NCBI GenBank assembly: GCA_963741065.1
Contig: CAVUGV010000018.1
Span: forward strand, 44,733 to 108,732
Length of the DNA: 64,000 nt
From: an uncultured Verrucomicrobiae bacterium
Lineage (GTDB): Bacteria; Verrucomicrobiota; Verrucomicrobiia; Chthoniobacterales; UBA10450
Direction: 5' to 3'
Position numbers and translations under genes: made by a program. Positions 1,006-35,453 of the stretch are shown here, in pieces (positions within the stretch are counted from its first letter, which is position 1; every line of letters begins with the position of its first letter). The notes under the pieces were generated by a model. It was not told the origin of the DNA. It did not search any database and was given only the letters and a program-made list of their open reading frames with translations.

Positions 1006-1973
1006 ATGCGCATCGTTTTCATCGGCACTGGCGAGATCGGCGTGCCGACGCTGGAAGCGTTGCTGAAATCAGAACACGAGGTTGTGGCCGTGGTCACGCA
1101 ACCCGACAAGCCGGTCGGGCGCGCCCAGCAAATCGAGCCGCCGCCGATAAAGAAAGTATTAACAAGGAACGGCGGTTTCCAAACCGCCGTGGGCATTCGG
1201 CGGCTGGGAAGCCGCCGCTCCCTGAAATCTTGCAACCGGCAAAAATCAGAGACCAACAAGCGATCGAACAGATTCGCGCGTTGGTTCCAGATGTAATTGT
1301 GGTCATGGCCTACGGGCAAATCTTGCCCCGCGACGTTCTGGAAATTCCAAAGATTGCCTGCTTGAATCTGCATGCTTCCCTTCTGCCGCGCTGGCGCGGG
1401 GCGGCGCCAATTCAGGCAGCCGTCGCGGCGGGCGATCAAGAGACCGGCATCACCGTGATGTACATGAATGAAGGACTCGATACCGGCGACATCCTGTTGC
1501 AGCGTACGATCGACATTCTTCCGGCCGATACGGGTGGATTGTTGCACGACCGACTGGCGCAGATTGCGCCCGAAGCGCTGCTCGAATCTTTGCAAATGCT
1601 TGAAAAGAACAGCGCGCCGCGCATTGCGCAGGACAATGCGCAGGCTACGTCGGCTCCGAAATTGAAGCGTGAACATGGGCGAATCGATTGGTCGGAACCG
1701 GCGGAAGTAATCGAGCGAAAAATTCGCGCGTTTAATCCGTGGCCGGGTGCATTCATACAAACTCGGCGATCGAAATCTGAAAATATTTTCTGCATGCGTG
1801 GTGGATCTTAGCGGCCAGCCCGGAGAAATTTTGCGCAGCGAAAAAGAGCTGGTTATTGCGGCTGGTAAAGGCGCGCTTTCTCTGGGCGAAGTTCAACTTG
1901 AAGGAAAGCGGCGAATGAGCGCGGCGGAATTTCTCCGCGGACACGCTGCGATATTGCGCAGCGGATTGATTCC
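1006..1973 (+). CDS. fmt: methionyl-tRNA formyltransferase, frame-disrupted as read (two breaks, no own stop codon)
   Basis: Three consecutive frames give [31 protein letters not shown].., then [37 protein letters not shown].., then [26 protein letters not shown]. Colinear with E. coli Fmt. Breaks at 1174-1217 and about 1760. Confidence 0.85.
1174..1217. repeat. 44-nt double perfect hairpin (CGGCGG..CCGCCG type) inserted inside fmt
   Basis: CGGCGGTTT-CC-AAACCGCCG (1170-1189) and CGGCGGCT-GGGA-AGCCGCCG (1198-1217). Lies exactly between the last Fmt codon of frame 1 (GGC at 1171-1173) and the first of frame 3 (CTC at 1218). Confidence 0.8.
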
Positions 1974-5789: not shown

Positions 5790-7773
5790 ATGATCGCGTT
5801 AAAAAACAACATCGGCAGCGAATTTGTTGAGCGTGTCCGTACATTCTTTTCTAAAGAGGGGCCGCTCTCCAAAGCGAAGAACTTTGAGTTTCGTCCGCAA
5901 CAGCAGGAAATGGCGGCGAGTGTCGCGAAAGCGCTGGAGGAAGAGCGCCATCTGGTGATTGAAGCGGGAACCGGCGTGGGCAAATCGCTCGCTTATCTCG
6001 CGCCGTCGATCCTTTTCGCACTCGAGCGGCACAAAAAGGCGATCGTTTCCACGCACACAATCAATCTTCAGGAACAACTGCTTTATAAAGACATTCCGAT
6101 TTTAAAAAAAATGCTGCCGGTCGAGTTTGAAGCAGCGTTAATGAAAGGCCGGCAAAATTATCTTTGCCCGCGCCGGCTCGAGCGCGCGTTGCAAAGCTGC
6201 GAAGGAACTTTTCACCGGCCCTGAGGAAAGCGAATTGCGACGCCTTGCCCAATGGGCAAGCACGACCCGTGACGGATCACTCAGCGATTTATCAGTGGAG
6301 CCCGATCCAAAAGTTTGGACGCAAGTTTGCAGCGAAGCGCACATCTGCACCCAGAAAACGTGCGGACAAAATCCGCGCTGTTTTTATCAGCAGGCGCGCA
6401 AACGTTTGCTCGCTGCGGACGTGATCGTGCTCAATCACACGTTGCTGTTCATCTTGCTCGGCTCGCCAGATGCACAGCAAGAACGCGAGAGCGGTTTTCT
6501 TTTTCCGAATGACTTCATCATCTTCGATGAAGCGCACACAGTCGAGCAGGTCGCATCCAAGCAGATCGGTATCGGCGTTTCGCAGTATGGACTGCGATCC
6601 ACGATCCAGCGGCTTTACAATTCGCGGACGCGCAAAGGACTGTTCACTGTAATGCGTGACGCGGAGGGCGTGCGACTCGCGGCGGAACTGATTGATGATG
6701 TTGAGAAATTTTTCGCGGCGGTCGAATCGAGAGCGAATTTTCGCAAAGGACGCGAGTTTCGCGTCCGCGATGTCGATTTTGTTCCGGACACAATCACTGG
6801 CCGGTTGACCGCGCTTCAGGCACGGATCGCCGAAGCGGTGAAACGCGCCGATGACGAAATTTTGAAAGCCGAGCTGCAGGAATACGGCCGGCGGATCCGC
6901 GACGCGCGGGACGGCATCGCCATTTTTCTCGAGCAAAGCGCGCCGGAACACGTTTATTGGGTCGAGCGCACCGGCAAAACGGAGCGGTTCCTCGCGCTCA
7001 ACGCTGCGCCGGTCGATCTTGCCCCGGTGCTACGGCGAATGCTCTTTCGAGACAACTGCTGTTGCGTGATGACCAGCGCCACGCTGGCCGTAGGCCGGCC
7101 CGATCTTGCCTATTTTCGTGAGCGCATCGGCGCGAGCGAGGCGGAACCGTTGCGGCTCGGCAGTCCCTTCAATTTTCAGCGGCAAATGAAAATGTTCGTC
7201 GTCCAAAAAATGCCCGACCCGCGCGACGCCGCTTATCAGAGAGAATTGGAGCGATGGATCGCGCATTTCGTTGAAAAGACCGATGGGTGCGCCTTTGTCC
7301 TTTTCACAAATTACCGCGACATGCAGCACGTCGCAGGCGCGATGCAGAAATTTTTTGTGGAGAAGGGCATGAATCTTCTGATGCAAGGAGCGGACGCGCC
7401 GCGGAGCAAGCTGCTTGAACAATTTAGATCAACGCCGCGTAGTGTACTCTTTGGCACCGATAGTTTTTGGGGCGGCGTGGATGTTCCGGGCGAAGCGCTT
7501 TCGAATGTGATTATCACACGGCTGCCATTTGCCGTGCCCGATCATCCGCTCGTTGAAGCGAAACTCGAGCTGATCGAGGAACGCGGCGGCGATCCATTCA
7601 CCGAATACTCCCTGCCGGAAGCGATCCTGAAACTCCGCCAGGGCGTAGGCCGCCTGATCCGAGCCAAAACTGACCGCGGCATCATCGTTATTCTCGACAA
7701 TCGCATCGTCTCCAGGCCCTACGGCCGCGCCTTCCTGCAGGCGCTGCCAAAATGTCCGGTGGAGATTGTCTAG
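5790..7773 (+). CDS. dinG: DinG/XPD-family ATP-dependent helicase (one frame break near 6195)
   Basis: Walker A AGTGVGKS, DEAH box FDEAHTVE, four-Cys cluster region (C..C..C..C at 6300-6400). Frames join as ..RALQ/AAKELFTGPEESELRRLAQW. Confidence 0.85.
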
Positions 7774-7813: not shown

Positions 7814-8800
7814 TTGCCTGCATGGAGGGACTCAATGCAGGCGCAGGAAATCTTCGAGATTCTCCACAAGTGGGGGATCCACACGCTTGGGCAGCTGGCG
7901 GCGTTGGATAAGGAGCAGCTGGAAGCGCGACTTGGCCCGGAAGCAAGCCGAATGTGGGAGCGCGCCAACGGGCGATCCATTCGAGTTCTCAAACTGGTTC
8001 GACCGCCGGAGTCGTTCGAGGAGAGCTTCGAATTCGAGCACGAGATCGAAACAGCCGAGCCGCTCCTTTTCATGCTCCGCCGTTTTCTGGAGCAGCTCAC
8101 GCTGCGGCTGACTGGAATCTATCTCGTAACAAAAGAACTGACGCTGCAAATTACGTTCGCGAATTCACGCCAAGACGAACCCGTCGTGGCGGGCAAACAG
8201 TTTTATGAGCGCGTTTTCAAAATTCCGCAGCCGACTAACGATGTCGATCTTCTCTTTCGCATGCTCCAGACGCACTTGGAGAATTTTCGATCGAAACATC
8301 CGATCGTGGCAGTCGCGCTGAGTGCGCAACCGATTAAACCCGCCAGCGAACAATTCGGATTATTTGAAACGACACTGCGCAATCCGCATCAACTATCGGA
8401 AACGCTCGCGCGTTTGACCGCCCTGCTTGGAAGCGAACGCGTCGGCACGCCAGTCATCGAGGAAACGCATCGGCCAGATGCATTTCGCATGGAACCGTTT
8501 TCGTGGGATGGGCTTCCAGCCCATTCAATCGGCAGGATGCCGATGCCACGTCCAGCTCTGCGAAGATTTCGGCCCGCAGTGTCTGCATCAGTTTTAGTGG
8601 ATGGAGACACCCGGGCGCATCTTTGCAGCGCAGAAATTTGCGGGAAAGTCATCGAGCAACATGGGCCGTATTTGATTTCTGGAAATTGGTGGGGCGAAAA
8701 ATCCTGGGCGCGCGCCGAATGGGATGTGCAGCTGCAGGATGGCGAGCTCGTTCGATGTCCACGAAACGGAGCGAACTTGGGAAATGGACGGCATCTATGA
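7814..8800 (+). CDS. imuB: ImuB-like protein lacking the N-terminal Y-family polymerase-like part
   Basis: 328-aa ORF. ..IHTLGQLAALDKEQLEARLGPEASRMWERANG.. resembles the HhH/little-finger region of ImuB. Directly precedes dnaE2. About 180 N-terminal residues expected from full-length ImuB are absent. Confidence 0.65.
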   Translation: MPAWRDSMQAQEIFEILHKWGIHTLGQLAALDKEQLEARLGPEASRMWERANGRSIRVLKLVRPPESFEESFEFEHEIETAEPLLFMLRRFLEQLTLRLTGIYLVTKELTLQITFANSRQDEPVVAGKQFYERVFKIPQPTNDVDLLFRMLQTHLENFRSKHPIVAVALSAQPIKPASEQFGLFETTLRNPHQLSETLARLTALLGSERVGTPVIEETHRPDAFRMEPFSWDGLPAHSIGRMPMPRPALRRFRPAVSASVLVDGDTRAHLCSAEICGKVIEQHGPYLISGNWWGEKSWARAEWDVQLQDGELVRCPRNGANLGNGRHL

Positions 8801-8831
8801 CTGGAGATCGAAGTCGTCTATGACGAGTCAT

Positions 8832-8859
8832 TTCGGCGGTCAAAGACCGCCGCTACAGC
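8832..8859. repeat. CGGCGG..CCGCCGCTACAG hairpin (REP-like)
   Basis: ttcggcggtcaaagaccgccgctacagc between imuB and dnaE2. Related to the hairpins at 1170-1217 and 12280-12310. Confidence 0.6.
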
Positions 8860-9281
8860 AAAATGCCGATTTGACGCTTCAATCGTTTCAATCGCTTTAA
8901 CTCGGAATCATGTCCTACATCGAGTTACACGCATGCAGCGCCTTTAGTTTTTTGCGCGGCGGCTCTTTCCCCGAGCAATTAGCTGAAGTCGCAGCGGAAT
9001 TGGAAATGCCGGCGATGGCGTTGCTTGATCGCAACGGCGTTTACGGCGCGCAACGATTTTCCGTCGCCGCGCGCGAGCACAACGTGCGCGCGATCATCGG
9101 CTGCGAATTGTCGATGGAAGACGGCAGCATTTTGCCGGTGCTGGTCGAAAATCGCACCGGTTACAAAAATTTGTGCGAACTACTCACCCAGGCGCATTTG
9201 CGCAGCGAAAAAGGAAAATGCGTGGTGCGTTGGGGTGAACTGCCGCAGTTCGCAGAAGGATTGGTAGCGCTTTTGGGATCG

Positions 9282-9409
9282 GGGAGCACAGGCTGCCAGC
9301 CTGTAGCTTCCGGCAGCTTGCCGGACGCCGGGTGCGAGGGCGTGCGCGTGATTCGAAGAGGTTTGCGGCAAGCTGCCGCAAACAACAGGCTGGCAGCCTG
9401 TGCTCCCCA
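9282..9409 (+). repeat. family-A palindromic element, copy A2, translated in frame inside dnaE2
   Basis: GGGGAGCACAGGCTGCCAGCCTGT ... ACAGGCTGGCAGCCTGTGCTCCCC are near-perfect terminal inverted repeats. The host ORF stays open and DnaE2-like on both sides. Confidence 0.85.
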
Positions 9410-11651
9410 GAACGCAGAAGATCGCGCGCGGTTTTTGATTGACGCGTTTGGCCGCGAAAATGTTTTCGTCGAAATTCAGCGGCATTTCATTCGCGGCGAG
9501 GAACGGGTCAATCGCGAACTGATCGATCTAGCGCGTGCACATCGATTGCCGCTTATCGCCACGAACGGCGTGCAATACGCGAAGCCGTACGGACGCGAAG
9601 TGCTGGATGTTTTCACCTGCATTCGCGAACACACGCATCTCGATGCTGCTGGCAAATTGCTGACGCAAAACGCCGAGCGCCATCTGAAGAGCGATCGCGA
9701 AATGCGAGCAATTTTCGCGGATTTGCCGGAAGCAATTGAAAATACATCGCGCCTGGCCGAGCGGCTCACGTTTTCGCTTGAGAATCTCGGTACGAATTTC
9801 CCGAATATCCCGTGCCGGCCGGACACAGCATGGATTCATTTTTGCGCACCATCGTCTGGTTCGGCGCGCAACAACGTTACGCCGCGATCAGCGCAAAAGT
9901 GAAACGCCAGCTCGAGGAAGAACTCGCGCTGATAACGCAAACTCGGGTTCCCCGGCTATTTCCTGATTGTCTGGGACATCGTCAATTTCTGTCGCGAACA
10001 CAACATCATGGTCCAGGGCCGCGGCAGCGCCGCCAACAGCGCAGTTTGTTATTGCCTCGGGATCACGCCGGTTGATCCGGTTGAAAATCATCTCGTCTTC
10101 GAACGATTCCTCAACGAGAGCCGCAAAGGCTGGCCGGATATCGATCTGGATCTTCCCAGCGGCGATCGGCGCGAAGCGGTGATCCAGGAAATTTATCGCC
10201 GCTACGGCAAACACGGCGCGGCGATGACCGCGAACGTGATCAGTTATCGCGGACGCAGCGCCGCGCGCGAGATCGGCAAAGCGCTGAATTTTTCGCCGAG
10301 TATTATCGATCGCTTTTCGCATCTGTTTGCGAACGGCGATTTTCCGCACACGACTCGAATTGGAATCACAGATCGAGCAGGCCGGTTTGCCAAAAATCAT
10401 CCGCGGATGCCGGCATTCATTCGACTGTATCACGCGATCTACGGCTTGCCGCGGCATCTCGGCCAGCATTCCGGCGGCATGATTATCTGTCAGAACAAAC
10501 TGAGCTCATTTGTGCCGCTGGAAAACGCCTCCATGCCGGGCCGCGTCGTCGCGCAATGGGACAAGGACGATTGCGAAGATCTCGGCATCGTGAAAGTCGA
10601 TCTGCTCGGGCTCGGGATGATGTCGGTGATGCAGGATGCGTTTGAGCTTTGCCGTGAACGCGGGCGACCTCTCGATCTGGCTCACATTCCAAAAGATGAC
10701 GCGGCGACTTTCGAGATCATGCAGCACGCCGACACGATCGGCGTTTTTCAAATCGAAAGCCGCGCGCAAATGGCGACGCTGCCGCGGATGAAACCGGAAT
10801 GTTTTTACGACGTCGTGATTGAGGTGGCGATCATTCGCCCGGGGCCAATCCAGGGCGACATGGTGCATCCTTATCTCGCGCGGCGCGCCGGCGAAAAGAG
10901 CCAATCACGTATTTCGACGAACGACTGAAGCCCGTGCTACAGCGCACTCTTGGCGTGCCGTTGTTTCAGGAACAAATGCTCAAGATCGCGATGGTCATGG
11001 CGGATTTTTCCGGCAACGAGGCCGAGGAGTTGCGACGCGCACTGAGTTTTCATCGTTCCGAGGAACGAATGCAAGAAAGTGAGCGTGAAATTGCGCGCGG
11101 CCATGGAGCGAAAAGGCGTCGCGCCGGACAAAATTGAGAAAATCATTCAATCGATCTCGTCGTTTGCGCTTTACGGGTTTCCCGAATCGCACGCGATCAG
11201 TTTCGCCATTCTCGCTTACGGCAGCGCGTATTTGAAAGTGCATCGCGCCGCCGGAATTTTACGCGAGCCTGTTGAACAATCAGCCGATGGGTTTTTACAC
11301 GCCGGCCACGATTGTGAAAGACGCGCAGCGGCATGGGCGTAAAGTGCAAGCCGGTTTGCGTCATGAAGATCGGACTGGCGCTGCAGCGTTGTTGACGACG
11401 ACACAGTTTCGACTGGGGTTTTGCGTCGTGAACGGATTGCGGCAGGAACACGCCGAAGAACTCGTCAGGCAACGGCAAGATCGACAATTTGAGTCGTTGG
11501 AAGATTTCAAGCGGCGAGTTCCTCTGTCGAAAGACGAATTGCGCACACTGGCAGAATTAGGCGCGCTGAATTGTTTTGCCGAACATCGCCGCGCGGCGAT
11601 GTGGAAAGTGGAAGAAACGCTGCATGATGATTTGCTCGATCGCACGACTCC

Positions 11652-11781
11652 GGGGAGCGCAGGCTGCCAGCCTGCAGTTTGCGGCAGCTTGCCGCAAACA
11701 TCTCGCACACGATGCGTGCAAACACCCTGAAGAGCGTTCCGCAAGCTGCTGGACGCGGCAGGCTAGCAGCCTGCGCTCCCC
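11652..11781 (+). repeat. family-A palindromic element, copy A3, inside dnaE2, with in-frame TGA and TAG
   Basis: GGGGAGCGCAGGCTGCCAGCCTGC ... GCAGGCTAGCAGCCTGCGCTCCCC. The flanking dnaE2 segments (11272.. and 11806..) share one frame. Stops at 11728-11730 and 11764-11766 lie inside the element. Confidence 0.85.
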
Positions 11782-12253: not shown

Positions 12254-12310
12254 TGTAGCCGCTTCGCTGTGCGAAGCGTCGCGCTGCCGCCCACTAGGGC
12301 GGCGGCTACA
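12254..12310. terminator. compound hairpin between convergent dnaE2 and gnd (REP-like, probable bidirectional terminator)
   Basis: TGTAGCCGC ... GCGGCTACA outer stem enclosing cgcttcgc-tgtg-cgaagcg and gccgccc-acta-gggcggc hairpins. Confidence 0.5.
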
Positions 12311-12312
12311 GA

Positions 12313-17205: not shown

Positions 17206-19477
17206 CGGCGATCGAGCGTAGCGCATCTGCTGAAGGCCGCGAGAAATGCGAGGGCAGCGAGAATTGAAATCCACTTTCCAAGTGTAAGCACGTCACGGGC
17301 GTACTCGACTCGTAAATGGTGATGACCCGCCAGCAGCGGCACCGCTCGCAAGATGTAATTTGCCGGCAGCAATTTGTAATTTGTCTGAACGCTCCCGGGC
17401 AGGGCGATAGCTCGCCACGATGGTGTGAATGCATCCGTGATCAGCAAGATGGCCGGTTGTTCGGCGTCAGCTTCAATTTCCAGCGCGTCAGTCGAAGCGG
17501 CAACAATTCGCGCCGTGCCGGCGCTTTCGGCTGGCAAGGGTTTCGGTTCCGGTTCGGATTCCAAAATTACTTCGTGCGCGGGGTCAAACGTAGTTGATCG
17601 CAACACGTCGAAGATTGCATTGCGGTCAGCCAGGACACGGTAGCTGGAAACAAGGTGGAGGTGCGACATGGCGGGCTCTGGTGCATCGCCGATTTCCAAT
17701 TCATTTCCGCGTTGCCCCAAAACATAGCGCAGACGCAGCATGGCGAAGAGCGGATCGTAGCGGACGAACTTCACATACGACATCGCCTGGTCGGGATCCC
17801 CGCCCTGGCTCCAAGTCATGAACTCGGCGTAGCGCCGCACCACGGTCGCTTCGTATCCCCACATGTCTTGCGCGCCGATCAACATCGCGCTGTTCGGGTT
17901 CGCGACATTCAGGATGCGGTAATCGCCGGCGTGCTCCTCGAGAAAGCGCTTTTCATCCGGATTCACGATGGTAGCGCTGTCAAACGTGGCGCGCGCGCCG
18001 TGTGCAAAAATAAACATTTCCGCCGCGCCCAAAGCGATCGCGCCAAACAGCGCACGCGGCTCTCGCCTCGCGAAGGCCAGGATGATGCCAAGGAGCGCGC
18101 AAACTCCAGCGGCAAAAAACAGCGACATCGCCGCGAGATGCTGCGATTGGGCAATAAATTCCGTGTCCGCGTAGAGTTGGGGGAACAGGTACGATTGGCC
18201 ACTGGCGCGACTTGCGTTCATTAGTCTCGGCCAGAACCCAGTGCTTGCGGTCCACCATCCGGCGACGCCCAAGGCCGCGGCACATGCGAAAACGGCAGCG
18301 ATAAATGGAGTCTCGATTCTCTTTTGTTGGAACAACCGCTCGAGTCCGCTGGCCGCGAGCAGACAAAGAAACAGCGACGCTAGAAAACTAAACTTCGAAA
18401 TACTGCGGAAGCGATCAAAGCCGGGCACCCAGGTATAAAGAAAATCGAACAACGGTGTATAGGCGCCGACGGCCAATAAAAATGCAACGCAAACAACAAT
18501 CAGCGGGGGCCATTTCGTTCCGCGTTCGCACCGAATCGTCGCGTAGATGGCGAACGCCAGGCCTACTACGCCGATGAAAACTGACGTTTCCCACAGATAC
18601 CAGCGTCCCCAGTATCTCGCTATGTGGCCAAAAAAATCCGGCGCGACCAACGTCGCAAAGTTCTCCGGCGGGAGCGAGAGCATGGAGGCAAATTGAAAAG
18701 GCAGCCTGAAGCCGCGCGTGGTTTCGCGCGTTGTCTGGATGGCGGGCAGCAATTGCACGGCTGCAAGGAGAGCGCCGGCTGGATAGATACTCAGCAACGC
18801 CGCTGCGACTCGCCAATTCCAGTGGCCGATCAATCGCAATGCAGCGTAGAGCCCGGCAATGATTGCAGTGTAAAAGACGTACTGCGGAAATCCTGCCAAC
18901 GTCTGCATGGCGATAGCAAACATCCCAAGCAACGACCAACCCCGAAAGCTTTCGGGGCGCTGAGTTCTGAAAACGGCGTCGATCGAACAAAAGATCAGCG
19001 GCGACCACGTCATTGCGCTCAACTGAGGCAAATGGCCGGCAAAAACGTGGGAAAAAACGCGCCGCAAAACATAACCAGCGTGCCGGCAAAGAAACTGGCC
19101 GGAGCGGAAAGCCCCCGTTGTTTCATCCAAAAAAACATGAACGCGCCAATAGCGAAAACATGCAGCGCCACCGTCCAGTTGATCGCGACAGGGGTGGACA
19201 AAACCAGGAAGAGCCAATTCGGCGGATACAGCAGCGCGCCTTGCATCCCACCGAAATACGGAGCGCCGCTAAAGATATGGGGGTTCCACAACGCGAGATT
19301 TCCTTTGGTCAATTCGCGGAAACCGAATTCGCGCCATGCGAAGTATTGCAAGAACATATCGCTGCCGGGATGTCCAAGCACGCGTGTGCCGCCGGCGAAC
19401 AAAAGATCGGCAAACATGGCCAGCGCCATTGCGAGCAAGAGGATCAGCGAAACGATCGTGGAACGCCGGCTTTCCAT
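17148..19477 (-). CDS. YfhO-family polytopic membrane protein (putative glycosyltransferase); one frame break near 19050
   Basis: N-terminal fragment ..LALWNPHIFSGAPYFGGMQGALLYPPNWLFL.. is YfhO-like and continues into the 689-aa ORF (many TM segments, large C-terminal domain). The last roughly 19 codons are antisense to the pgsA fragment. Confidence 0.7.
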
Positions 19478-19726: not shown

Positions 19727-22700
19727 ATGCCTATGAACGCAAGCGCGCTAATCACCCGATCAGTTCAACTGGCTGTCCGGCCGTTTGTCCTTCTCTGGGC
19801 GTTTCTCAAGAAGATCGCTCTCGCGGTCTTCGGCAGATTGCACTGGAGCCCGCCGCACTGGCTTACACGAAGCCGCGCTGCCACGTCCGATTTTCATCGC
19901 GCGCATCCCCGCATCACGGCGTCCGGGATCGTCACGATTTTTCTGTTGTTGTGCGGCGCAGCCTGGACATTGCATTGGTATCAACATCGGCCCATCCCGC
20001 ACAAAGTTACGGCGACGATCGCCTCTCCGTCGGTTACCAAGCTCGAGAAAGAACTCAAATATCCGCCGCTCTTTGTCCGGTTCAGCGAACCCGCGGCGCG
20101 TCTGGAGGATTTGAAGAAACCATCGCTGTCAGGCGTCCAGGCTCGAACCAAAGATCAATGGCGCGTGGTCATGGAACTCGGACAAGGAACTGGCTTTTCG
20201 GCCAACGCAAGACTGGCCGGCCGATCAAAAATTCAAAATCACTTTCGACAAGAAATTTTTCCCGCCGCAGGTTTTGATGGAGCGCCTTGCCTACGAGTTC
20301 CAGACGCCACCATTCGACGTCGCCATCAAAGAACTTCAGCTCTACCAGGACCCGGCCAATCCGACGCAACGCCAAATCACGGCTACGCTTGAACTCACCC
20401 ATGCGGTTGAGCCCGGCGAGTTAGATCGGCATATCCAGCTGCAGATGATCGGCGGATCGAACGTTTTTCCGCCGTCAGAGTCGTCGCCGCATTTCACGAT
20501 CAGCTATGGGTTGCACAACCGTCTGGCGTATCTGCGCAGCTCGAACGTGACTCTGCCAGAGCGGGAGGATTTCATGAAGCTCTACCTGAGCAAAGGCGTG
20601 CGCACATCGCAGGGCGGCGCGCAAACACGGAACTCCGCAGAGGATAAGGTGCGCATTCCATCACAGGAAACCGCGTTTCAGATCGATTCGATCACCGGCA
20701 CGATCGCGCGAAATAAGAATGGCGAGCCGGAGCAGGTGCTGATCTTAAGTACAACGGCCGATATCAGCAGTAGCGAGCTGGCCAAGGCTGTTCAAATACG
20801 TCTGCTGCCGAAACGCAACGCCGAAACGACTGAAGAAAGCGAAACCGAAGCGACCGGAGAAACCGATTCGCAAAGTCCCGACTCGGAAACGGCTGAGCAA
20901 AGTAACCAAAGCAGCCAGACCGGCGCATCGGGAGACGAGGAGGCGGAGGAGGGGGAAGAACCCGATCAAGCCTCAAAATGGCAGAGTCCTGCCGAGGTGC
21001 CGGACGATGTCCTCGAGCAAGCCAAACAAATCGAATTCACGGTTGTGCCTCTCGGAAAAGGCGCAAGATCGGCAACACGCTTTTAAGATACAGATCGAAT
21101 CGGAGGGCGAGCTTTACGTCCGCGTCCCGAAAGGCGTGCGCGCGCCTGGCGATTACCGATTGGCGGAAGACTACAACGCAGTCGTCGCCGTGCCGCAGTT
21201 GCCGCGCGAAGTGCAGATCGAAGGTCAAGGCGGCTTGCTCGCGTTGAGCGGTGAACGGAAATTGTCCATCCGTTCACGCGCTCTGGCGGCGATCGAATTC
21301 GAAATCGCGCGTGTTGCTACCACTCAGATCAATCACCTCGTCAGCCAGACCCAGGGCAAATTCGAGGACCCTGAATTTCGCGATTCACATTTATTCAATC
21401 AGGAAAATATCTCGCGTATCGGAATCGAGCACCAACCGATTGCGGTCGAAAACAAATGGAAAGCGAATTATTCGGCGTTCGATTTCTCCGAGCATCTTCG
21501 CAAGCCAGCCGATGGCGGAAGCGAGCGCGGGCTTTTCTTTCTGACCGCGCGCGGCTGGGACCCGGCGAAAAAGAAACCAATCAACTCAGCTACGGACAGC
21601 AGATTTCTTCTCATCACGGACATCGGAATTTTAACGAAGAAAAACACCGATGGCAGCAGCGACGTCTTTTTGATGTCGATCAAAAATGGCCAGCCGCTCG
21701 GCGGCGCGACGGTTGACATCCTGGGCAAGAACGGCGTGCCGATCCAGACGGCCAAAACGGCGGCGGATGGTCATTGCACTTTTCCATCCGTTGAAAAATC
21801 CGAGCGCGAAAAATTGCCGGTGGCGTTCGTGGCGCGCAATGGCGACGACGTCGCGTTCATGCCGTTCGCGCGCGAAGACCGCGTCCTGAATTTTTCGCGC
21901 TTTGAAATTGAAGGGGCGGAGAACATCGCCGCCGGAAGGTCTCGACGCGTTCGTTTTCACCGAGCGCGGTGTGTATCGGCCCGGGGACGAAATTCACATC
22001 GGGCTGGTGGTGAAGCAGCGAAGCTGGGGCGGCAATCTCAAAGGCTTGCCCATTGAAACCGAAGTGCATCGATGCGCGCGACCTGCGGGTCCAGACTAAG
22101 AAGCTCACCTTGCCGGAGACCGGGTTCACCGAACTGAGCTATCAAACCGCCAACGAATCGCCGACCGGCCTTTACACCGTCAATGTGTACCTGATCAAAA
22201 ATAACAAGCGCTCGAGTTTGCTCGGTTCCGCCACAGCTCAGGTGAAGGAATTTCTGCCCGACCGCATGAAAATCGAGACGCGGCTGTCCAAAGCTGCCCC
22301 GCGCGGCTGGATTCATCCCAGCGAAATGCATGCTTCCGTTGCCTTGGCCAACCTTTATGGCACGCCCGCAACCGATCGGCGTGTGACCGGCAAACTCGAA
22401 CTCGCACCGGCGGCATTTTCATTTCCGGAATTTCGCGACTTCACTTTTTTCGACCCGCTCTTTGACGAAAACAAAACTCGACAAGAGCAAACGGTCGATC
22501 TCGGCGAAACGAAAACCGACAGCGAAGGCCACGCCGATTTTGACCTGCAACTGGAACGGTTCGCCGACGCGACGTACGCGATGCGATTTATCGCTGAAGG
22601 CTTCGAAGGCGAAGGCGGAAGGAGCGTCATGGGCGACGTCGGCGCGCTGGTCTCTGCTCTGCCTTACGTGATCGGCTACAAAGCCGACGGCGACCTTCGT

Positions 22701-25655
22701 TACATCGACATGAAAAGACCGCGCGCGATCGACCTCGTCGCAGTCGATCCGCAACTCAATCGCATCGCCATCGAAAACGTCACTCTCAACCTCATCGTCC
22801 AGGAATACGTTTCCGTGCTGAAGAAACAGGAGAACGGCAATTACGCTTACGAGTCCGTCCTGAAAGAGCGGCCGGTGAAATCGGAAAAAATCTCGGTCGC
22901 GGCCAGTGGCTATCATTACGCGCTTCCCACCGATGAACCGGGCAATTATGTGATCGAGCTGCGCGACGATCAGAATCGCGCGTTAAGCAAGTTGCGTTTT
23001 TCGGTCGTGGGGCAAGCTGCGCATGGCCGGGGCTCTGGAGAAAAACGCCGAACTGGAAATTAAACTTAACGCCAAAGAGTACAATGCCGGGGATGAAATT
23101 GCAGTAAGCGTGACGGCGCCATACAGCGGCTACGGTCTGATCACGATCGAGCGGGAAAAGGTTTACGGTTACAGTTGGTTTCAAACCAACACCCCCAGCA
23201 GCATCCAGCACATTCATCTGCCTCAGGAGTTTGAGGGCAGCGGCTATATCAATGTCGCCTTTGTGCGGGCGCTCGATTCCAAGGAAATTTTTGTCAGCCC
23301 GCTCAGTTACGGCGTCGTCCCGTTCAAGGCCAATATCGAAAAACGCCGACTGAAGATCGACCTGCAAGCCGCAGCCAAAGCGAAGCCCGGCGAACCGTTG
23401 CACATCGGGTACAAAACCGACCGTCCCAGCAAGATTGTCATTTTCGCGGTCGATCAAGGAATTTTGCAGGTCACTAACTACAAGACGCCTGATCCGCTCG
23501 CTTATCTCTTTCGCAAGTGCGCGCTCGGCGTCGAGACGGCGCAGATTGTCGATCTTATCATTCCGGAATTTTCGTTGCTCCGTTCTCTCTCAGCTTTTGG
23601 CGGCGGCGAGGAAGGGGCACAGAGATTGAATCCGTTCAAGCGCGTCACGGAAAAACCGGTGGTGTTTTGGTCTGGCATCATCGATGCCGACGCCACTGCT
23701 CGTGAAGTTGTCTATGATGTGCCCGACTTTTTCGACGGCACACTCAAGATAATGGCGGTCGGTGTTTCGACCGAAACAACCGGCTCAGCCGAACGGGACG
23801 CACTCATTCGCGGGCCTTTTGTCATTACGCCGAGCGCGCCGGTGTTGACCGCTCCCGGCGACGAATTTGAGGCCGGCGTAACGGTCGCCAATAATGTGGA
23901 AGGTTCCGGCGCGGACGCGGAGATCGAGCTTCGCGTCGAGACGTCTGCGCAATTGTCGGTCTTGGGCGCGTCCACCCAAAAATTGCGAGTCGCCGAAGGG
24001 CGCGAGCAGAGCGCAAAACTGCGCTTCCACGTCAACGACGCGCTCGGCTCTGGCGAGATCAGATTTGTAGCCAGCCGAAATGGGATCGAGACACGCCGGC
24101 GCGCCACCCTGAGCGTGCGGCCACCCGTTCCGTATGCAACCGATGTTCGCAGCGGGAATTTCAAAAAAGGAAACGCGGATGTTCCGATTACGCGTGAGAT
24201 CTATTCCGAGTTCGCCAAACGCGAAGCTGCGGTTGCAGCCGTCCCGCTGGGTTTGGCGCACGGTCTTTACGCTTTTCTCAAGGATTTTCCCCACGGCTGC
24301 AGCGAGCAACTCACCAGCGGCGCATTCTGCCGGCTGCTGCTCTCGGACGAGGCCGATTTCGGGCTCAGTCGCGCAGAGGCAAATACACAGATCGAAAAAG
24401 TCTTTGGGATTCTGCGACGCCGGCAAAACGATCAAGGCGCGTTCGGTTATTGGGCGCCGGAAACTGACGAGAAGATCAGTTTCAATTCTGTTTACGTAAT
24501 GGATTTTCTGAGCGCGGCGAAAACAGCCGGCTTTGCTCCGCCAGCGGACATGTTCGCGAGCGGGTTGCGCTATTTGCAAAAGATGGTCGCGCGCGAACCC
24601 TCGACCCTGGCCGACGCGCGGACCATCGCCTACGGGATTTATGTACCTCACCCGCGAAGGCGTCGTCACCACCAATTACGTCCTTAATCTGCGCGATTAT
24701 CTCGACCAGCATCAGACCGATATATGGCAGAACGATGTCACCGGCGTTTATCTCGCGGGCGCGCTCAAACTTCTGCACAAGGACAAAGAGGCCGAAGATT
24801 TGATCGCCGCCTACAAGATTGGCGAGGCATCGGGCCGAGAGTACGACGACTTTTGCCAACCGCTCGGCGCAAACGCGCAATATATCGCCATACTCGCGCG
24901 CGCCTTTCCGGAGCGGTTGAAGAAAATTTCAGGAGGGGAATTCGAGCAAGTTCTCCAGCCGATCGGGCGCGGCCGAATTCAACACGCTCTCGGCCGCCTA
25001 CGCTGTTTCGGCGCTGAAATCGTACTCGCACATGATCGCGCAAAAGCTGCCCCAGCTCAGCATTATCGAAATTCACCGTGACAAGCGGGAAGTTGGCCTA
25101 ACGAGCGGCTCAAAGTTGCTGCAACGGACGGCATTTTCCAAAGACGCGATTGCGATTCGCTTCAAAAGCACCGGAACGCTCAGCGGTCCCGGCGCATTTT
25201 TCCAGGTCGTCGAAGCGGGATACGATCGACATGCGCCGGGACAACCGGTGACGGCCGGATTGGAAGTTCATCGCGAGTTACTGGACAAAAACGATAAGCC
25301 GGTGACGCAGACAAAACTCGGCGAACCGATTCATGTCCGGCTGTATGCGCGCACTGTGCGCGACCAACCGGTCACCAATGTTGCCATTGTCGATCTTCTT
25401 CCCGGCGGATTCGAAGTTGTCGGGTCATCCTTGCAACCGGGTGTTTCAACAATTTCCGGCGTCGATTATGTCGATGTGCGCGAAGATCGCGCTGTCTTCT
25501 ACGGAACCGTGTCCGGCAGCGCGCTCGAGATCAATTATCAGATCAAATCTACTAATCGCGGCGAGTTCACAGTGCCGCCCATTTTCGCCGAGGCGATGTA
25601 CGAGCGAAACATCAAAGGCCGCGGTATCGGGGGGAAGATCAGCGTGACGGAATAG
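19727..25655 (+). pseudogene. bacterial alpha-2-macroglobulin (YfhM-like) with thioester motif. As read: at least 6 frame changes
   Basis: Seven consecutive ORFs in frames 2,0,1,0,1,2,0 form one roughly 1970-aa MG-domain protein. Thioester GCSEQ at 24295-24309. N-terminal TM anchor. Followed by pbpC as in the classical pair. Confidence 0.8.
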
Positions 25656-25674
25656 CACTTGGAGCAACGCGAAA

Positions 25675-28046
25675 ATGAAAAACCGTGTCATCCCGAACGC
25701 AGTGAGGGACCTCTCAAGAGGACATGGGTTACACAAATTACTGTGTGTGATCCGCGCTTCGTGGGTGATGTCCCTCGCGTTGCTCGGGATGACCGTGTGG
25801 TTCGCCTGGCTGCTACTCCCGAAGCCGCCGTTGCTTGAGGGCATCTCATTTTCCCAATGCGTTCGTGATCGCAACGGAAAACTGCTGCGCGTCACGCTGA
25901 GCGGTGACCAGAAATTCCGCATCTGGACACCGCTGCGCGAGATTTCAACCGCATTGATCGATGCGACGCTGCGATTTGAAGACAAATATTACCGGCATCA
26001 CCCCGGAGTTAACCCGCTGGCATTACTGCGTTCGGCTTTGAATCTGCGACCAGGTCACGCACATAACGGAGCCTCCACCATTACGATGCAACTGGCTCGG
26101 TTGCGTTATCATCTGCGCACCCGCACCCTCAGCGGAAAGTTTGTTCAAATTGTTCGCGCGCTTGAACTGGAGCGGCATTACTCGAAGGACTGAAATTCTT
26201 GAAGCCTACCTCAATCTCGCGCCCTACGGGCGGAACATCGAAGGCGTGGGCGCGGCCAGTCAGATTTATTTTGGCAAGACTGCCGCGCATTTAACCAGGC
26301 CTGAATCAATTTCGCTGAGCGTCATTCCGCAAAGCCCGACCCGACGCGCGTTGTTTGTCGATCAGGATAACGGCGCGCTCAACGCCGCGTTATCGCGATT
26401 CGGCAGGCGAGACGCACGCCTGCCCTACAGCCAGGATGACTATGCTACTCTGGCGCGCGATTTTCGACCGCGCGCTTTAAGCGAACACAAACTTCTCGCC
26501 CCGCACTTTGTTCAGCAGGTGCTGGCGGCCGAGAAAGGCCGCGACGAAATCGTCACCACGCTCGATCTGGCAAAGCAGCAATTAATCGAGCGGCGGATCG
26601 CCGATTATGTTCGAACAAATCGCGGTCGCGGAATTCAGAATGCTGCCGCCCTGCTGGTCGATGCGCGCAACATGGATGTGCTGGCACAGGTCGGCTCGGC
26701 CGATTTCTTCAACGCTGACATACAAGGACAAGTGGACGGAACACGCGCGCCACGTTCACCCGGTTCCACTCTGAAACCGTTCGTCTATGCGCTCGCCCTC
26801 GAGCAGGGATTGATTCATCCATTGTCGATCCTGTCGGATGCGCCCCACAGTTTCGCGGACTACAATCCGGAAAATTTCGATCGCGAATTCGTCGGCCCCA
26901 TCCGCGCCAGTGACGCGCTCGCACGCAGTCGCAATCTTCCAGCGGTCGAACTCGCATCCCAGTTGCGTCATCCCACACTGTATGAATTCCTCCGGGGCGC
27001 GGGCATTAAATTGCCGCGCTCGGAACCGCTTTATGGATTGGCGCTTCCGCTGGGCGGGGCCGAAGTCACAATGGAAGACTTGGTGCGACTTTACGCTGCG
27101 CTGGCCAATAACGGAGAACTGCGTCCGCTTCGCCGCACATCGCGCGAGCTAATCGCGGCGCGGGGCCACTCGATCATGATGCCGGAAGCGGCGTTCCTGA
27201 CCCTGGAGATGCTTAACTTGCCACGACCCGAAATGGGCCGCGCTTATGCGGACCATGCCGCGCCGGTTTTTTGGAAAACGGGGACCTCCCATGGTTTTCG
27301 CGACGCATGGTCAATCGCCGTTTTCAATCACTATGTGCTCGCGGTTTGGATCGGAAATTTTGACGGCCGCGCCAATGGAACTTTTGTCGGGCGAATCGCC
27401 GCCGCTCCTCTCTTGTTTCAAATCATCGATAGTTTGCGCATGAGTTGGCCGGAACCGAACCAGCCGCATCTTCCGCCTCCGGGCGCAAATTTGAAACGTG
27501 TCTCTTTTTGCGCCGTCTCGGGCGATTTACCTGGGCCGTATTGCACTCAACAAGTCGAGGGATGGTTTATTCCCGGAATTTCTCCGATCAAACCCTGCGA
27601 TGTGCATCAGGAAGTGCTCGTCGATGCCATGAGCGGACTCCGCGTGGCGCAGGGATGACGGAACGCGCCAGCTCCGCCGTGAAGTCTATGAATTTTGGCC
27701 GACGGAGTTGTTGTCGATCTTTCGCCGGGCTGGAGTGCCGAGAAAATTGCCGCCGCCATTTTTGCCCGGAACGACTGCGGAATTCGTCGCGCGCAGTGGA
27801 AATGCGCCGCGAATCGTTTCGCCACCTGATGGGCAAAAGATTTTGCCGGCACCGGCCGGCGCAATACCCTTGCAAGCCAGGGCGGACGCTGATGTGCGCG
27901 AGATTTACTGGTTCGCGGGCAAAACCTTTATCGGCAGAGCCCCGCCGCAGGAAGTAATTTCATGGAAGGCGTCGGCAGGCCGATACGAATTGATCGCCTT
28001 GGACGACCATGGCCGCTCGGGCTCATCCGCGATTACGGTGCAATAG
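25675..28046 (+). CDS. pbpC: penicillin-binding protein 1C (transglycosylase/transpeptidase); two frame breaks (about 26150-26190, about 27655-27710); likely start ATG 25768
   Basis: GT51 motifs RFEDKYYRHHPGVNP, GASTITMQLARL, ILEAYLNLAPYG. Transpeptidase motifs STLKP, KTGTS. C-terminal PbpC-type domain (..IYWFAGKTFIG..). TM helix MSLALLGMTVWFAWLLL. Confidence 0.85.
25687..25793. repeat. family-B inverted-repeat element, copy B2, overlapping the pbpC start
   Basis: gtcatcccgaacgcagtgagggacctc ... gatgtccctcgcgttgctcgggatgac. The right arm contains ATG 25768 and the first TM codons of PbpC. Confidence 0.8.
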
Positions 28047-35382: not shown

Positions 35383-35453
35383 AGCGGGCAACGGGAATCG
35401 AACCCGCATGGCCAGCTTGGAAGGCTGGAACTTTACCATTAAGCTATGCCCGC
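35383..35453 (-). tRNA. tRNA-Gly (anticodon UCC), CCA not encoded
   Basis: Reverse complement GCGGGCATAGCTTAATGGTAAAGTTCCAGCCTTCCAAGCTGGCCATGCGGGTTCGATTCCCGTTGCCCGCT. 7-bp acceptor GCGGGCA/TGCCCGC, anticodon loop CTTCCAA, T-loop TTCGATT, 4-nt variable loop, discriminator U. Confidence 0.9.

Follow-up and report, generated by a model that had tools for sequence, protein, structure and literature searches.

The window analysed here is a stretch of 64,000 nucleotides (nt) from an uncultured Verrucomicrobiae bacterium (assembly GCA_963741065.1, contig CAVUGV010000018.1), near the start of which lies an fmt gene that contains a palindromic double hairpin and is read in three segments. The N-terminal segment (1006-1193, plus strand, frame 1) is colinear with the intact Fmt of L001, a Candidatus Udaeobacter metagenome-assembled genome (MAG) that is 95.6% identical to the window across 1944 nt; the same identity is reached by L007. 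The middle segment (1194-1760, plus strand, frame 0) holds the conserved core and ends in NPWPGAFIQ, and the C-terminal segment (1762-1944, plus strand) returns to frame 1, ends in EFLRGH and has no stop codon before pyrH. With the N- and C-terminal thirds of the gene in frame 1 and the middle in frame 0, the conserved Fmt core is, as read, out of frame with both gene ends, and the window gives no full-length match to TIGR00460 above the cutoff in one frame. Membership of the fmt family is not in doubt, because the 95.6%-identical L001 orthologue scores 272.7 bits against TIGR00460 (cutoff 201.5). At the 3' end of the gene, an open reading frame (ORF; 1747-2934) crosses a repetitive extragenic palindrome (REP)-like element into pyrH, the fmt stop codon being absent (region 1944-2180); in L007, L003 and L011, the stop codon (TGA) comes from a different repeat in the same slot, GGTCATCCTGAGCGAA..CTCGGGATGAC, which resembles a miniature inverted-repeat transposable element (MITE).

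Frame 1 reads ..KKVLTRNG until 1173 and, if continued, gives nonsense and a stop at 1294-1296; the Fmt text of frame 0 is open from 1194 to about 1760. The initial annotation of this DNA had placed a frame change here, with frame 1 up to 1173 and frame 0 from 1218, and the reanalysis agrees. The first break lies between 1193 and 1194 (plus strand), in the spacer of the double hairpin (1190-1197), where one base is missing. This base corresponds to the third position of a Gly codon (GTG GG_ CAT) adjoining the G-run 1191-1193, and its absence is private to the window, being a -1 indel against 20 of the 23 aligned relatives. The second break, opposite in sign and 568 nt downstream, is found at 1759-1761 (plus strand), where the run CAAAC holds one extra A (CAAACTC versus CCAA-TC), again private to the window as a +1 indel against 26 of 28 aligned relatives; its flanks, GAFIQ and LGDRNLKIF, equal in length AFMPINNRNLKIF of L001. 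Both indels fall at short homopolymer runs.

The double hairpin consists of two 20-nt units on the plus strand, hairpin 1 at 1170-1189 (CGGCGGTTT-CC-AAACCGCCG) and hairpin 2 at 1198-1217 (CGGCGGCT-GGGA-AGCCGCCG), with perfect stems of 9-10 bp (10 bp if the pair 1169/1190 is counted) and 8 bp, respectively; in size the units agree with the short stem-loops of REPs (20-40 bp). They are separated by the spacer TGGGCATT (1190-1197, plus strand), which has 8 nt in the window and 9 nt in all in-frame class-1a relatives. The stems had been correctly described as perfect, but the two hairpins are not back to back, and they do not make up the interval 1174-1217: hairpin 1 begins at 1170, inside Asn-Gly codons, and both belong to a larger palindrome. 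This whole cassette (1163-1224, plus strand) measures 62 nt in the window and 63 nt in relatives, its arms (1163-1189 and 1198-1224) being inverted copies of 27 nt each with 81% complementarity, and its profile matches its own minus strand. The region 1150-1240 folds at -40.8 kcal/mol, compared with -28.8 +/- 3.3 kcal/mol for shuffled sequences (z = -3.7; 0 of 200 as good), the minimum-energy fold being a single long hairpin. Because the solved Fmt structures 5UAI and 3TQQ align with a gap across exactly the hairpin stretch, the segment is extra relative to classical, E. coli-type Fmt, as had been proposed; 1FMT/2FMT were also matched in the structure search. The insert was placed by HMMER alignment to these solved structures, since an AlphaFold2 model (P0004 with 48 close homologues) had a mean predicted local distance difference test score of 49.6, too poor for placing it.

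Exact-protein look-ups of two upstream genes retrieved six contigs with an intact fmt of 315-321 codons. The double hairpin is present in L001, L005, L006 and L007 as 45 nt in frame, encoding GLQT(V/A)AGQSAAGKPP in the first three; the insert peptide of relatives reads GG(F/L)QTAxGxSAAGKPP, within the wider cassette TR(N/S)GG(F/L)..(L/P)E. The window form, GTGGGCATTCGG, has 44 nt, the relatives' form, GTGGGNCAT, 45 nt, and in the spacer alignment the window's GGG-CATT stands opposite GGGTCAAT or GGGGCAAT. Among the 120 nearest Fmt proteins (77-100% identity), the insert amounts to 16 residues in 92, 15 in 7, 13 in 12 and 7 in 9, all open, with the window's type in 99 of them. No stop codon occurs in the insert at any class-1 locus, so that the host ORF is extended in frame without stops, in the manner of a Rickettsia palindromic element (RPE) or an in-frame MITE. 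These alignments show that the cassette is in frame, stop-free and common to most sequenced Candidatus Udaeobacter Fmt genes.

The 44 nt of the window are thus very likely an old palindromic cassette that is read in frame at 45 nt and lacks one of them here; given that the native insert of relatives has 45 nt, the frame break corresponds to a 1-nt deletion inside the insert. The initial annotation had read the segment as a 44-nt element that landed inside the gene, and had itself pointed to a homologous in-frame extension in close orthologues as the observation that would contradict this. The orthologue alignment finds such an extension, with 45 nt in frame in the orthologues and some in-frame insert at the site in all 120 homologues. 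The arithmetic by which it explained the shift (44 is 2 modulo 3) is sound but follows from how the interval was defined, the actual cause being the one missing spacer base, and the break is consequently of the same kind as the simple 1-nt breaks elsewhere in the window from which it had been set apart. The insert is presumably translated, in which case the cassette would add about 15-16 residues to the Fmt N-terminal domain, in the stretch that links its 'PPIKKxL' and 'ILQP' segments. Natural variants of it are found in two homologues. In P0104 (..AVDVRRLEAAAPRVLQP) the frame is shifted locally and then restored; the P0119 text, ..TAERLTAVWKPPLLE, corresponds to the cassette centre read as its reverse complement, as if the part between the arms had been inverted. 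Such variants indicate that the peptide is weakly constrained and the reading frame constrained.

The reliability of the window was assessed by aligning its first 11 kb with up to 28 relatives and counting private indels. There are 21 private indels whose length is not a multiple of three. For seven of them (at about 1188, 1752, 6192, 9780, 9936, 10344 and 10392), 17 or more relatives back the call; L007, a sister assembly made of short-read k-mer contigs, shows three across this span, all weakly supported. The private 1-nt indels noted beyond fmt, at about 6198, 9786, 9936, 10350, 10392 and 11070, lie in conserved coding sequence and are each contradicted by 17-22 relatives; a DinG-like helicase gene is cut by one of them into 5790-6224 and 6235-7773. 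Farther along (19727-27658), a bacterial alpha-2-macroglobulin gene with the domains MG2, bMG3, bMG5, bMG6, A2M_BRD, A2M and bMG10 falls apart into six or more overlapping ORFs of differing frame. In the neighbouring class A penicillin-binding protein gene (Transgly and Transpeptidase domains), tentatively labelled PBP1C/pbpC, the Transgly domain is cut at profile position ~103 between 25675-26193 and 26141-27658, its halves lying in two frames. A broken fmt also occurs in two long-read MAGs among the relatives (L051 and L063) and in L061.

The window alone has private 1-nt indels at such a density (roughly one in every 1-2 kb of coding sequence), the pattern of an unpolished, error-prone consensus; both fmt breaks are therefore very probably consensus errors of the assembly, and Fmt is probably intact in the organism. 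Inactivation of fmt by the hairpins, as initially claimed, is unlikely, considering that a further 1-nt indel of opposite sign lies at 1759-1761 and that such private indels pervade the window only. Alternatively, the frameshifts may be real, fmt and many other genes being pseudogenes and the 1-nt deletion in the cassette truly inactivating. The sequence as given is indeed broken twice in fmt, fmt is dispensable in some bacteria, and a real frameshift is possible inasmuch as the artefact was called by comparing assembled sequences. We nevertheless regard this as rather improbable, since pseudogenisation would have to account for at least seven robust private frameshifting indels in 11 kb of conserved coding sequence that is otherwise 95-97% identical to its relatives, for a sister lineage with only three weakly supported ones, and for long essential-type genes shattered at a similar density. 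Moreover, every fmt segment is open in its own frame, no large deletions are found in the aligned 11 kb, and the cassette is in frame in more than 150 relatives, which implies purifying selection on fmt. Programmed recoding, in which the ribosome bypasses the 44 nt or shifts frame at the hairpins, as in T4 gene 60 or mitochondrial byp, would suit a structured segment of non-triplet length exactly at a frame change. Its probability is close to nil, as the relatives' segment is 45 nt in frame, the take-off GGC (1171-1173) and pre-landing CCG (1215-1217) are mismatched, there is no slippery heptamer (X XXY YYZ), frame 1 meets its stop at 1294-1296, and a second, opposite shift would be needed 568 nt downstream; we rejected programmed bypass and frameshift given the in-frame orthologues and the absence of the required motifs. 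With consensus error as the preferred explanation, the gene is best annotated as an intact fmt with a lineage-specific insert of 15-16 residues, not as a pseudogene, and the window should be treated as bearing about one indel error per 1-2 kb.

The insertion site was then compared across fmt loci from 58 Chthoniobacterales, with one genome per species, and 80 more loci from a metagenome scan. Insert length, scored in 56 species-representative loci, ranges from none (23 loci) through 4 (8), 5 (2), 7 (6), 9 (1), 11 (2), 13 (2) and 15/16 (11) to 43 residues (1). The 23 insert-free alleles are AT-rich, unstructured and colinear with E. coli, and every insert among the scored loci is a GC-rich palindrome in frame, as exemplified by L028 (ACGGCGCGCTC-GGC-GAGCGCGCCGT). 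On a tree of the Fmt core, different insert states lie side by side in close relatives: forms of 13 and of 16 residues occur together in the window's clade, and one 43-residue allele is sister to an empty allele. The 43-residue form has 129 nt cleanly inserted between ATGTCG and ATCCTG, and the sequence on either side does not differ from that of empty alleles (L050:1955-2986, L147 and L159 versus L157, L138 and L140); the insert folds at -78 kcal/mol, and no other copy of it was found. We take the double-hairpin insert to be passenger DNA that a permissive Fmt loop tolerates, a function for it being possible but unsupported. Across one genus, the same protein loop thus carries five or more different palindromic cassettes, and one of these is also present in ileS.

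That shared cassette is the one found in the 4- and 7-residue inserts. Read on the opposite strand, the 4-residue cassette, GGTAGGGCGCGACCGCCGGGCGCGCC, gives exactly the core of the 7-residue cassette (GGCGCGCCCGGCGGTCGCGCCCTACC), so that one element occupies the fmt site in both orientations. It has the form of GTAG followed by an imperfect palindrome (G-GTAG-GGCGCG..), which is the signature of GTAG-type REPs (PMC3733652). In at least eight genomes the same element is also found some 7.5 kb upstream, where an ORF of 937 codons, identified as ileS (TIGR00392, 845 bits versus a cutoff of 621), reads through it in frame as GRARPPGAP. The ileS sites are at L012:2486-2578, with orthologous sites in L009, L013, L021, L023, L030, L036 and L049, and also at L043:2416 and L055:2463; two genomes show a nested palindromic expansion of 20 residues at this site, and others have GGASSPNAL or a shorter loop. 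Further copies occur just upstream of fmt. The cassette of these relatives therefore has a GTAG tag, multiple copies and a presence in several unrelated genes (fmt and ileS), and since its signature matches that of described REPs, the phenomenon is of a known kind: intragenic REP insertion, here in another genus.

As regards the window's own cassette, it would have begun as palindromic material at the DNA level, most likely as two REP-type units, akin to the GTAG-CGGCGG.. hairpin at 8834, joined tail to tail; this palindrome would have landed in a permissive loop and survived because the frame was preserved. The cassette architecture, [GGAG-CGGCGG..CCGCCG]-8/9 nt-[CGGCGG..CCGCCG-CTCC], fits a tail-to-tail REP dimer. 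The hairpin at 8834-8856 (minus strand; GTAG-CGGCGGTC-TTT-GACCGCCG) is solitary, GTAG-tagged, REP-like and intergenic, and its stem is that of hairpin 1 in L005 (CGGCGGTC..GACCGCCG); the unit CGGCGGTC..GACCGCCG-CTAC was found only in the window and in L007, which is of the same species. An inverted pair of GTAG-tagged hairpins, similar to a REP dimer, lies between convergent ORFs at 12255-12311 (no strand assigned). The initial annotation had linked hairpins at both intergenic places to the fmt element, which is borne out for 8834-8852, with its CGGCGG/CCGCCG stem, but not for 12284-12309, where the stem is CCGCCC/GGGCGG and only the CTACAG tail is common. GTAG-tagged units with a CGGCGG stem also occur in L027 and L063; L060 has the GTAGCGGCGG motif alone, without a matching second arm. 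Across the window, CGGCGG-N(2-30)-CCGCCG occurs five times versus 1.0 expected (five being reached by 2 of 100 shuffles). GTAG-tagged hairpins number four versus 0.5 expected, a weak enrichment given that the control tags GGAG (6) and GATG (4) give similar counts.

A REP-like nature of the window's cassette is therefore partly supported: the element is palindromic and dimer-like, and a GTAG REP occupies the same site in relatives, but several findings weigh against the REP-dimer reading. The outer tetranucleotides are GGAA (window) or GGAG, and CTCC, with no GTAG or CTAC in 19 class-1 sequences. No second copy of the cassette was found in the 64-kb window, whether exact or with three mismatches, or in about 0.96-1.3 Mb of related loci by regular expression (over 965 kb), blastn-short or an nhmmer profile, all hits being at fmt; the related DNA scanned was mostly one neighbourhood in many genomes. 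The peptides of the cassette in four alternative frames revealed no second host gene against 5.8 billion proteins, the four matches being three ORFs antisense to fmt and one chimeric 634-nt contig with coverage of about 1. The chimera, L167 (ERZ27318159 NODE_46547, 634 nt), joins the high-GC start of a response-regulator / sensor-kinase gene, within the cassette, to antisense Udaeobacter fmt, and is hence a false 'second host gene'. The window's cassette was not found in several unrelated genes, as RPEs and MITEs are, and lies inside fmt, in frame, not in an extragenic location as is typical of REPs. Lastly, compensatory double changes in its stems could reflect selection for structure instead of passive inheritance.

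These stems were examined by covariation tests on 19 class-1 sequences with 500 shuffles. Under a two-hairpin model, 86% of cells are paired and 12 cells are changed on both sides, which none of the 500 shuffles reaches. The compensatory changes are TTT/AAA to TCT/AGA in hairpin 1 (L005, L007, L103 and L134) and CGGCGG/CCGCCG to CGACGG/CCGTCG in hairpin 2 (five relatives), and may represent only two inherited events. The 27-bp long hairpin was rejected as a conserved structure, being 82% paired with covariation no better than in shuffles. Class 1b (..ACCCCGAA-AGCA-TTCGGGGCT..) can fold only as a long hairpin. G.U and A.C mismatches are equally frequent in the cassette stems (12 versus 13; 45 versus 47), which points to a strand-symmetric DNA palindromy and argues against selection on the sense-strand RNA. 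The cassette changes at an intermediate pace: its identity is 0.75, and in the Fmt core the value is 0.89 for codon positions 1+2 and 0.58 for position 3. An Rfam scan of the whole window returned one tRNA gene only (35383-35453, minus strand), and a survey of perfect hairpins in long open frames across loci was too noisy for use.

Two other accounts of the cassette have to be set against insertion of a REP-type palindrome. It could have arisen in place, by template switching or inverted duplication during replication, without ever having been a mobile REP-type element. This would agree with a 63-nt near-palindrome whose outer arms, CAAGGAG and CTCCTTG, merge into apparently ordinary fmt codons, with the want of a GTAG tag or another copy in the window and related loci scanned, with paired double substitutions that leave the stems intact, and with variants such as the flipped centre of P0119 or the re-paired inner stem of class 1b; the creation and maintenance of hairpins by template switching is documented (PMC8794818). 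An origin in place is, however, unlikely on balance, though it deserves real weight: at the fmt site, sister lineages have a GTAG REP that is dispersed and present in both orientations, and also a clean insertion of 129 nt, so foreign palindromes do insert there; GTAG-tagged copies of the unit stem CGGCGG(T/C).. occur, moreover, at 8834, in L027 and in L063. The hairpins might also be a functional mRNA element of fmt under selection, such as a translational pause or processing site, as the extent of pairing (86%) and the 12 double-changed cells, beyond all 500 shuffles, would suggest, together with the slower change of the cassette (identity 0.75) compared with the third codon positions of the core (0.58). 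This appears quite improbable in view of the equal frequency of G.U and A.C, which leaves no sense-strand signature, and because some 40% of related species are without any insert and others have unrelated palindromes. Furthermore, class 1b is unable to form the two small hairpins, no Rfam match was obtained, the long-hairpin model lacks significant covariation, and each double change may be a single inherited event.

Returning to the insertion of REP-type palindromes, a broader but tentative proposal, which we consider possible, is that the Fmt loop (PPIKKxL-ILQP) and a loop of IleRS are recurrent landing pads for such palindromes in Candidatus Udaeobacter, taken up in either orientation, with nesting, in frame and differing between very close relatives, and that the window's double hairpin may be a REP dimer minus its GTAG tag. 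If true, essential translation genes of a lineage that is free-living and abundant in soil would have been colonised in the manner of RPEs, which would offer a natural series for the study of REP target choice and of the tolerance of proteins to inserts. The series permits tests of whether the inserts are neutral passengers, of targeting and of frame keeping, and the case enlarges the little-studied class of intragenic REP-like palindromes.

Other palindromic repeats were noted in the window and in related loci. The intergenic slot 8800-8909, which contains the solitary hairpin, is hypervariable, ranging from 10 to 259 nt among relatives and holding different MITE/REP-like repeats. Dispersed repeats of CACAGGCTGCCAGCCTGT and (GTTT)GCGGCA(AGC/GCT)TGCCGC(AAAC) hairpins occur at 1975-2100, 9281-9410 and 11655-11700 of the window and at L005:6454-6497; the CACAGGCTGCCAGCCTGT family is unrelated in sequence to the fmt cassette. 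A perfect hairpin, GTAG-GGCAGGCG-TGCGTCT-CGCCTGCC (26402-26428, minus strand), lies inside the ORF of the class A penicillin-binding protein, where it is open in frame (..FGRRDARLPY..) and may be another intragenic REP. The hairpin CCCCGAA(A/T/C)GC(A/T)TTCGGGG recurs at 18940-18957 of the window and at L007:3403, L008:10993, L017:1793 and 7136, L051:8949 and L055:9035, in sites that are unrelated to one another and include the fmt-pyrH spacer of relatives; it is also the inner stem of the class-1b fmt cassettes (L014, L017 and L018).

Among known systems, template-switch (quasi-palindrome) mutations (PMC8794818) share with the fmt cassette the perfect stems, the paired double substitutions and the variants that look like local inversions; they need no mobile element, are described mainly for RNA genes, and leave the dispersed GTAG cassette at the fmt site unexplained. 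REP doublets forming hairpins (REPINs; PMC3116915, PMC3337134) likewise consist of two related inverted palindromic units that fold into one long hairpin, but they are extragenic, multi-copy and linked to a REP-associated tyrosine transposase (RAYT), whereas the fmt cassette is intragenic and known from sequence at one locus. RPEs (PMC10969869) resemble it, judging from their description, as palindromic DNA placed in frame in housekeeping genes, adding a peptide apparently without destroying the protein, and with presence/absence polymorphism among relatives; unlike the 45-63 nt of the fmt cassette, which is apparently single-locus, they measure about 100-150 bp, have dozens of copies and encode a conserved family peptide. 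The closest parallel is offered by intragenic GTAG REPs, a minority class that often takes the form of dimers encoding 20-30 residues, counts tRNA synthetases among its reported targets and reaches its highest numbers in the verrucomicrobium Opitutus terrae (Di Nocera, De Gregorio & Rocco 2013, PMC3733652). Like these, the fmt cassette is built of short, GC-rich stem-loop units, paired and inverted with a very short spacer, and sits in frame inside a conserved gene of the same phylum, with some 16-22 residues added, while the window and its relatives possess GTAG-tagged units with a CGGCGG stem (8834; L027, L063). It differs in having GGAA/GGAG and CTCC in place of GTAG/CTAC, with no other copy in the DNA scanned. 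The 4- and 7-residue cassettes of its relatives, in contrast to the fmt double hairpin, carry the GTAG tag and are present in multiple copies, as intragenic GTAG REPs are.

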